Below are positions 28,879 to 29,527 of a stretch of 64,000 bases of DNA, piece by piece. The notes below the pieces were generated by a model. It was not told the DNA's origin. It made no database searches and saw only the letters and a list, made by a program, of their open reading frames with translations. Positions within the stretch are counted from its first letter, which is position 1. Every line of letters starts with the position of its first letter. This DNA is from Escherichia coli. GTDB lineage: Bacteria; Pseudomonadota; Gammaproteobacteria; Enterobacterales; Enterobacteriaceae. The translations under genes and the position numbers were made by a program. The DNA lies in NCBI RefSeq assembly GCF_044324875.1, contig NZ_CP172185.1; one strand, 5' to 3'.

Positions 28879-29527
28879 AATGCTACGTATCCTTGAAATA
28901 AATATCCTCTGGCAGCGCCGGAGACGTGAATGTGGTCACCGCAAAGGTGCCACAGGACGTCACTTGCGCTGATATAACTACTCATCGTTGACTTTTTCCC
29001 TTGGTCAGAAATGCCGTGTCGGGTCTGGTACATGCTGTATTACGGCCCAGGCAGCTCTGACGTATTAAAGAAAATACGAGAGCGAACGACCCGGAAATAA
29101 TCGTTATTAAGCAAAGGAATAACTATAAGAAATCGCTCATGCATCCGGTGCTACAGGCGGATGAAACGCCACTACAGTTACTGAGCAGTCTGAAACGCGT
29201 ATTGTGTGGGCTACGCCAGTGCGGCAGGTTGCGTGGGGGAATATGTTCAGGCGATGTCAGGCTGGGGCCCCTGATGGTTGACGGGGATACCGGTAATGCG
29301 GGGCTGGTTATTCTTCACCTGTTGCAGTCAGAAGAAGCCATTATGCTGACTTTCTTGAGCCGGTGTTTTGAGTTGATTAGCCAGAGCCTGCAATGGTTTG
29401 TCATCCATAATTTAACCTTCTTCTGATGTTGGTATGAGCATATCAAAATCAGGAAATGACAAGTTTATATGCAGGCTCAGGCTGCGTTCGCAAAGCATCG
29501 CATCCGGCGATAGATGCTGTATTAAAT

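Follow-up and report, generated by a model that had tools for sequence, protein, structure and literature searches.

What lies in the 649 bp between two co-directional genes of Escherichia coli, one of which encodes a leucine-rich-repeat (LRR) protein? We addressed this question in a 64,000-nt stretch of contig NZ_CP172185.1 (assembly GCF_044324875.1), hereafter the window. Its gene order is dadA-dadX (plus strand), the LRR gene (minus strand), the spacer at 28879-29527, cvrA (minus strand), ldcA, emtA and ycgR; in the direction of transcription, the spacer follows cvrA and precedes the LRR gene. An earlier reading of this DNA from its letters (the sequence-only reading) saw no credible open reading frame (ORF) here, only short ones without recognisable features, and it suggested that the region might hold regulatory sites of the LRR gene, a small RNA, or the remnant of a second gene that had arrived on the same insert. 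Its coordinates for the LRR start (28878), the 3' end of cvrA (29528) and a 95-aa plus-strand ORF (29139..29426) are exact.

We conclude, with a probability of roughly 65%, that the spacer is a composite of four parts: a conserved stretch 5' of the LRR gene, a probable fragment of an insertion sequence (IS) of the IS66 family, a relic of an IS256-family element, and the 3' flank of cvrA. According to this reading, 28879-29126 would be the LRR gene's own control region, with a weak promoter that is activator-dependent or silenced by H-NS; an AT-rich tract of this block would carry operator palindromes, followed by a leader with a ribosome-binding site. The distal ~350 bp would be inert debris, in which the IS66 fragment (plus strand) is abutted by the IS256 relic (minus strand). 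The final 49 bp would be the flank of cvrA, where a YmgM-like ORF starts antisense to that gene. The suggestion of a gene remnant is therefore borne out, as about 350 of the 649 bp appear to be the remains of two transposase genes. The four parts, and the genes that bound them, are as follows.

28879..29126, minus strand: conserved LRR 5' region, positions -1 to -248; likely promoter, operator and leader
~29127..29300, plus strand: probable decayed IS66-family transposase fragment, tnpC residues ~264-344, with frameshifts and deletions
29287..29478, minus strand: internally deleted IS256-family (IS1414-like) relic, in which the left terminus, the 5' untranslated region (UTR), the start codon of the transposase (ATG, 29408) and two pieces of its coding sequence remain
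29479..29527, minus strand: native cvrA 3' flank, 97% identical to K-12
27442..28878, minus strand: LRR gene, 478 aa; its start at 28878 (ATG 28878-28876) bounds the spacer
29528..31264, minus strand: cvrA; its stop at 29528 bounds the spacer on the distal side

Conservation of the LRR-proximal block

The DNA next to the LRR gene varies less than the distal parts of the spacer. Among 8 alleles, mean pairwise identity is 97.1% over 28879-29149, compared with 94.5% in the IS256 relic and 93.8% over 29150-29286; identity at four-fold sites is 87.8% in cvrA, 89.8% in dadX and 91.9% in the LRR gene. In a comparison of 12 related alleles, all from this one species, 12.5% of the sites in the block at 28879-29126 segregate, versus 21.2% in the IS66 fragment (Fisher p=0.026), 19.8% in the IS256 relic (p=0.047) and 28.4% in the first 250 nt of the LRR coding sequence (p=1e-5). 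A gap in any of these alleles affects 1 of the 248 window positions of the block, and 134 of 160 columns in the IS66 fragment. Allele L005 alone has a 19-bp insertion inside the block, between 29035 and 29036. Further, a natural 158-bp deletion (29153-29310) stops within about 25 bp of the block, and the LRR ORF is intact in the allele that carries it.

The earlier proposal of regulatory sites for the LRR gene is plausible for this proximal ~250 bp only, where the DNA is conserved and, in window coordinates, practically indel-free; promoter prediction identified no site there by sequence. The following candidates can be read in the block.

28890..28894, minus strand: Shine-Dalgarno-like AAGGA, 11 nt upstream of the LRR ATG, read directly from the sequence
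28901..28930, minus strand: best sigma-70-like candidate (TTCACG, 18-nt spacer, GATATT), weak, with invariant hexamers, 23 nt before the ATG
28913..28971, minus strand: 59-nt imperfect hairpin in the putative leader, with arms at 28913-28927 and 28957-28971
29061..29078: palindrome CGTATT-N6-AATACG in the AT-rich conserved tract, a candidate regulator site, nearly invariant in the 12 alleles
29096..29108: palindrome AATAA-CGA-TTATT, a candidate regulator site, invariant in the 12 alleles

The AAGGA motif is likewise invariant, and each of the positions just downstream of it (28887-28889) varies in one allele. The hairpin is without covariation support, because most alleles disrupt two of its base pairs. 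A sigma-54 reading of TGGCAC...TTGC at 28950-28939 was dropped by eye, as its spacing is 3 nt too short. With GTATCGTTTTTTTANAG as the consensus of the MxiE box, we found no match with three or fewer mismatches anywhere in the window, and the block has neither similarity to nor a shared motif with the DNA upstream of an E. coli NEL/LRR effector gene carried by a phage. Activator-dependent virulence promoters are expected to match the sigma-70 consensus poorly and to be AT-rich, with palindromes.

We infer that the block may act as promoter and leader of the LRR gene and that transcription of cvrA would stop short of that gene. For an uncharacterised YopM/IpaH-type LRR gene found in about one-seventh of E. 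coli genomes, the search for a control region is narrowed to ~250 bp and two candidate operator palindromes. A bolder account is also conceivable, though we offer it only tentatively. It holds that the ~250-bp block is a dedicated module to which a regulator binds at the two palindromes, that purifying selection maintains it in ~15% of E. coli while the LRR protein diversifies, and that ymgM, discussed below, was born from a second IS1414 insertion followed by a deletion.

Remnants of an IS256-family and, probably, an IS66-family insertion sequence

The statement that nothing recognisable is present does not hold; the distal part of the spacer contains DNA matches to IS256-family elements (29287-29483), a protein-level match to IS66 (~29127-29300) and a YmgM homologue in the ORF at 29456..29656. 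When the spacer was compared with a full IS256-family element (L008), blastn aligned 29483-29371 with the left end, the 5' UTR and the first 13 codons (81.7% identity, E=5e-27) and 29341-29287 with codons ~85-103 (83.6%, E=2e-12). The coding content of the relic consequently runs from codon 1 to ~25 and, after a deletion, from ~85 to 103; the catalytic region is absent. The fragments reach local protein scores of 44-69, where 40 marks the 95th percentile of the null. The relic's transposase begins MDDKPLQALAN, where IS1414 has MDEKQLQALAN, and alignment with a genuine IS1414 copy identifies the left repeat GAGCCTGCATATAAACTTGTCATTTCC, with its terminus GAGCCTG ending at 29478. A blastn search of the spacer against plasmids returned 767 non-self records at 60-90% identity, with an IS256 family transposase in the examples listed.

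In the most divergent allele, L005, 12+13 nt of the transposase gene survive that are gone from the other alleles; the relic is thus shrinking by deletion. No right inverted repeat of the relic is recognisable at the locus, and no adjacent 8-9-bp target-site duplication was found. In the literature, a survey of IS1414 and astA makes no mention of this locus. One further feature belongs to the left end of the relic.

29379..29483: 14-bp inverted repeat, AGCCAGAGCCTGCA / TGCAGGCTCAGGCT, in which the left inverted repeat pairs with codons 6-10 of the transposase

This repeat is 93%-complementary and native to the 5' end of the IS, for it is also present in the intact element (L008, 2093-2106).

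Some other repeats and matches were considered and set aside. The direct repeat GCATCCGG (29141 and 29500), the sole candidate for a target duplication, was rejected as such; it does not adjoin the terminus mapped at 29478, and by chance alone 649 bp should contain an 8-mer repeat. When extended (29141-29158 / 29500-29517), the two copies match at 14 of 18 positions, and each is within a small hairpin; one copy lies within the IS66 fragment, ~15 bp from its left edge, and the other ~22 bp beyond the IS256 terminus. The repeat could be a leftover of a duplicated target, a sequence like the repetitive extragenic palindromic (REP) elements, or a product of chance. A reading of the CCGGATGC repeats as REP elements was discarded, as the window has no supporting REP copies. 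A supposed third piece of the IS256 transposase (VYPEARIQLCIVHMVRNS against 29244-29191) reached a score of only 31, where the null mean is 33, and that stretch belongs to IS66 on the other strand.

The fragment at ~29127-29300 very probably derives from an IS66-family transposase, as judged from its translated sequence; it is detectable at the protein level only. KKSLM-HPVLQADETPLQLLSSLK aligns with KRDLLRQPVLQADETPLQILDTRK (TnpC residues 264-287), including an identical run of 11 residues, PVLQADETPLQ. The similarity extends collinearly through G.LWA..SA, C..G..G and LV.DG.AG, in pieces that cover TnpC residues 290-329 and 331-344. In custom frameshift-aware pairwise alignments, the scores were 72 against a null of 33.4 +/- 4.5 (maximum 50) and 84 against a null of 31.5 +/- 3.4 (maximum 42). 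The fragment is truncated on both sides. Its right end overlaps the IS256 relic ambiguously, over about 29287-29306, and upstream of 29127 nothing aligns with TnpC or the accessory-gene region; neither the accessory genes tnpA and tnpB nor terminal repeats were found. Pfam searches of the raw six-frame translations of the spacer gave no transposase match.

Short open reading frames

That the spacer lacks a credible ORF is confirmed: its ORFs are short, and no protein gene that is both intact and conserved is contained entirely in the 649 bp. Two of them deserve a line.

29139..29426, plus strand: 95-aa ORF, a chimera of 19 in-frame IS66 codons, out-of-frame IS66 sequence and the antisense of the IS256 relic
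29456..29656, plus strand: YmgM-homologous ORF, 66 aa, antisense to the cvrA 3' end

Deletions of 29 bp (L002, L012), 158 bp (L006) and 8 bp (L010, L012) break up the 95-aa ORF in 4 of 9 alleles. A minus-strand ORF from 29408 is the N-terminus of the transposase; it has 26 aa here and 53 aa in L002, and it is frameshifted in L005. Except for the ORF at 29456..29656, no ORF of the spacer has a Pfam match. The calls of the Prokaryotic Genome Annotation Pipeline (PGAP) are inconsistent; depending on the genome, they are 95 aa on the plus strand, 53 or 65 aa on the minus strand, or a partial ymgM-like pseudogene. In some genomes the 95-aa and 53-aa ORFs appear as hypothetical proteins (WP_001544521.1 and WP_000342121.1, respectively). 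Such entries are artefacts of transposase debris, and their propagation is unwarranted.

On the minus strand, a second ORF from an ATG at 28986 (window 28749-28986) overlaps the LRR start codon in another frame. It has ~78 aa here and 62 aa in L005, and its substitutions are mostly non-synonymous. It could conceivably act as a short regulatory upstream ORF.

Distribution and loss of the LRR gene

The protein encoded downstream of the spacer has an LRR domain of the YopM/SlrP/SspH/IpaH type and no NEL domain. Its homologues are confined to E. coli and Shigella, down to ~74% identity. The ORF remains open at 437-486 aa, with in-frame changes of length, among alleles that differ by up to 23% of their protein sequence; its GC content (41-50%) is below that of its neighbours. 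In 9 of 9 alleles examined, dadX and cvrA flank the gene. Population searches covered 5426 complete E. coli genomes. The full 649-bp spacer was found at a coverage of at least 80% in 706 of them, and a related query was found in 831; about 15% of the genomes carry the arrangement. Beyond E. coli, a protein-pattern search for orthologues in 100,044 genomes, one per species, gave a single contig, of a contaminated metagenome-assembled genome (MAG). This 2,088-bp contig (L015, JAIJJM010000586.1) is from a MAG labelled Collinsella sp. and is 99% identical to the LRR locus; it is evidently E. coli contamination of the bin. We found no paper linking dadX with a leucine-rich-repeat gene in E. coli.

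In K-12-type genomes (3308 of 5426, 61%), the DNA equivalent to window positions 27516 to ~29469 is missing, and 74 bp of the LRR 3' end are kept. Because this remnant is retained, the absence of the LRR gene from these genomes is a derived deletion. The word "insert" in the sequence-only reading is therefore misleading; the window has no strain-specific insertion. In O157:H7, an IS3-family element stands in place of window positions 27558-29413, and in an O158:H23 strain IS100 lies within the LRR gene at about 28246-28251. The gene has been lost or broken in at least three separate ways, by the K-12-type deletion, the IS3-family replacement and the IS100 insertion (window compared with L003, L001 and L004). 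The locus is a record of repeated loss of the LRR gene by insertion sequences.

The cvrA flank and the start of ymgM

On the cvrA strand, the terminator scan found no canonical intrinsic terminator in the 3' flank. After cvrA, the minus strand of 29200-29300 is rich in C and poor in G (plus-strand GC skew +0.25 to +0.37), again with no intrinsic terminator, and it may be a Rho-utilisation region. In several LRR-positive and O157 genomes (L005, L018-L020, L003), PGAP calls cvrA a partial pseudogene ("missing C-terminus", 1671 nt). On checking, the full 578-aa ORF of L005 is intact. The pseudogene call may be caused by an overlapping ymgM-like call.

The ORF at 29456..29656 matches Pfam PF23693 over residues 11-66 with 128.4 bits (cut-off 27, E=1.4e-37). 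Its first ~10 codons are unlike those of K-12 YmgM, and its frame depends on a clade-specific 1-nt deletion. The ORF opens with an ATG that falls in antisense sequence of the old relic, and other LRR-positive alleles have no equivalent start; the K-12-type start, MDDKQLQAQA, is absent from the window ORF. Translation from this K-12-type start, supplied by IS1414, has been shown.

The K-12 record annotates "IS1414 (partial)" at 1240188-1240289, at the same locus, and this fragment contains the ymgM start (1240260). Its orientation is opposite to that of the window relic, and it is 94% identical to IS1414 and 84% identical to the relic. The window relic is the older and more diverged of the two. 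The intact outer terminus of the K-12 fragment abuts the 74-bp LRR remnant, and its inner end meets the cvrA flank in the common sequence TGCAGGCTC; the K-12-type junction is located at the site of the 14-bp inverted repeat described above (29379..29483). The simplest history is that IS1414 inserted a second time, into the LRR gene, and that short direct repeats then mediated a deletion between them.

The IS1414 transposase gene is the source of the ribosome-binding site, the ATG and the first ~10 codons (MDDKQLQAQA...) of K-12 ymgM, and the remainder of the ORF is antisense to cvrA; the fusion region is at 2689-2964 of L004, equivalent to window 29379-29656. Presumably, IS1414 also supplied a promoter. 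K-12 ymgM seems to have arisen by way of an insertion sequence, in a fusion that came about together with the loss of the LRR gene by deletion. This clear origin, at the sequence level, for the start of K-12 YmgM is the most notable by-product of the analysis. The gene is listed in the small-ORF annotation table of a paper on new E. coli small proteins (PMC6001520).

Weighing the explanations

Several results weigh against the composite reading. A position-weight-matrix scan in the LRR sense gave a best score of 6.2, under the mean best score of shuffled sequences (8.7 +/- 1.6), and a sigma-70 consensus scan of 28600-29800 returned zero promoter sites. The substitution constraint on the block relative to the IS debris is modest, at p about 0.03-0.05 for 12 related alleles of one species. 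Identity within the LRR gene is 92.7% at codon positions 1+2 and 91.9% at four-fold sites, so that non-synonymous change roughly equals synonymous change; with the repeated losses, this suggests that a conserved control region may serve little purpose. As for the IS66 fragment, tblastn with the plus-strand translation found as non-self matches only IS66-family transposase loci, at E about 5, which is not significant for a search of the whole database, and Pfam DDE_Tnp_IS66 scored 17.7 bits on the frame-repaired L005 peptide, below its cut-off of 23.1.

The results for the promoter and the LRR gene would suit a spacer that is neutral throughout, block included, with the LRR gene either silent or transcribed only by read-through from cvrA. 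The two genes are on the same strand, with no intrinsic terminator or sigma-70-like promoter between them; the terminator scan found no site on the minus strand or in the conserved block, and terminator-like sites on the plus strand only, inside the debris. The near parity of the two kinds of substitution in the LRR gene, and its loss through the K-12 deletion, the O157 IS3-family element and the O158:H23 IS100, would also be expected of such a gene. We nevertheless regard neutrality as rather unlikely. Variable sites are ~40% less frequent in the block than in the debris beside it, and indels are nearly absent from the block, whereas the debris is full of deletions, and the LRR ORF has stayed open despite its protein divergence. 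Read-through would, in addition, have to cross 649 untranslated nucleotides whose C-rich part at 29200-29300 would make Rho-dependent termination ahead of the LRR gene more likely.

A small regulatory RNA, whether independent or processed from the 5' UTR, is improbable, and this suggestion of the sequence-only reading found little to sustain it. The block does fold somewhat better than its shuffles (z=-2.46 and -2.55, one per strand) and has two long imperfect hairpins. However, z-scores so nearly equal on both strands point to an effect of composition or of palindromes, hairpin pairs are broken in most alleles with one possible compensatory change only, and the block lacks a promoter-like/terminator-like pair, with no terminator-like site in it at all. 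Further, the covariance models of Rfam 15 gave no match at E<=1 on either strand of 27000-31500. A real protein gene among the short ORFs, be it the 95-aa ORF, the 26-53-aa ORF from 29408 or the ~78-aa ORF from 28986, has even less in its favour. PGAP annotates two of these products in some genomes, and the ORF from 29408 retains the ribosome-binding site and ATG of the transposase. Yet the first is an IS66-sense/IS256-antisense chimera that is frameshifted or deleted in several alleles, the second varies from 26 to 53 aa or loses its frame, the third varies from 62 to 78 aa with mostly non-synonymous substitutions, and none of the three has a Pfam match. Hardly tenable, finally, is an invertible switch, in which a 77-bp segment of the relic's 5' end (promoter, ribosome-binding site and ATG) would drive the LRR gene in the window and ymgM in K-12. 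The segment does have opposite orientations in the two, is flanked by the 93%-complementary 14-bp inverted repeat and supplies the ymgM start in K-12. This idea is largely refuted by a flipped-segment query of the 5426 genomes, in which no full-length identity exceeded 88.8%, the value expected for the unflipped segment, and no flipped allele was seen. The identities of the K-12 copy to IS1414 and to the relic are better fitted by a second IS1414 insertion and a deletion, and there is no invertase gene nearby.

Comparison with known systems

The composite reading places the parts of this spacer beside several known systems, and its features are ordinary for acquired DNA; none is surprising in kind. 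The gene downstream has the same type of LRR as the effector genes of the IpaH/SspH/SlrP/YopM type. Its upstream region resembles the activator-dependent virulence promoters of LRR effector genes in that it, too, is AT-rich and palindromic and lacks a good sigma-70 promoter. It differs from the promoters of the Shigella ipaH genes, which have a MxiE box, whereas none is present here even with up to three mismatches allowed.

With IS1414, the relic has in common the architecture of the left end, that is, the GAGCCTG terminal repeat, the 5' UTR and the start MD(D/E)K(P/Q)LQALAN, as well as the internal 14-bp inverted repeat. Identity is 79-84% over the ~97-nt core of the left end and, in the comparison with the full IS256-family element, 82-84% over the matched stretches of 113 + 55 nt. 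Of roughly 1.3 kb, the relic retains ~190 bp. The probable IS66 fragment has in common with TnpC the motif block PVLQADETPLQ(I/L)L...G.LWA..SA...C..G..G...LV.DG.AG, collinear with residues 264-344. Here, too, the remnant is small; TnpC has 544 codons, and the fragment represents ~80 of them, with at least two frameshifts and several deletions. Finally, the YmgM-like ORF of the window occupies the same position as K-12 YmgM (b4740, PF23693), antisense to the 3' end of cvrA, but the two begin differently: K-12 YmgM starts at the ATG of an IS1414 transposase, and the window ORF starts within the antisense of the relic.

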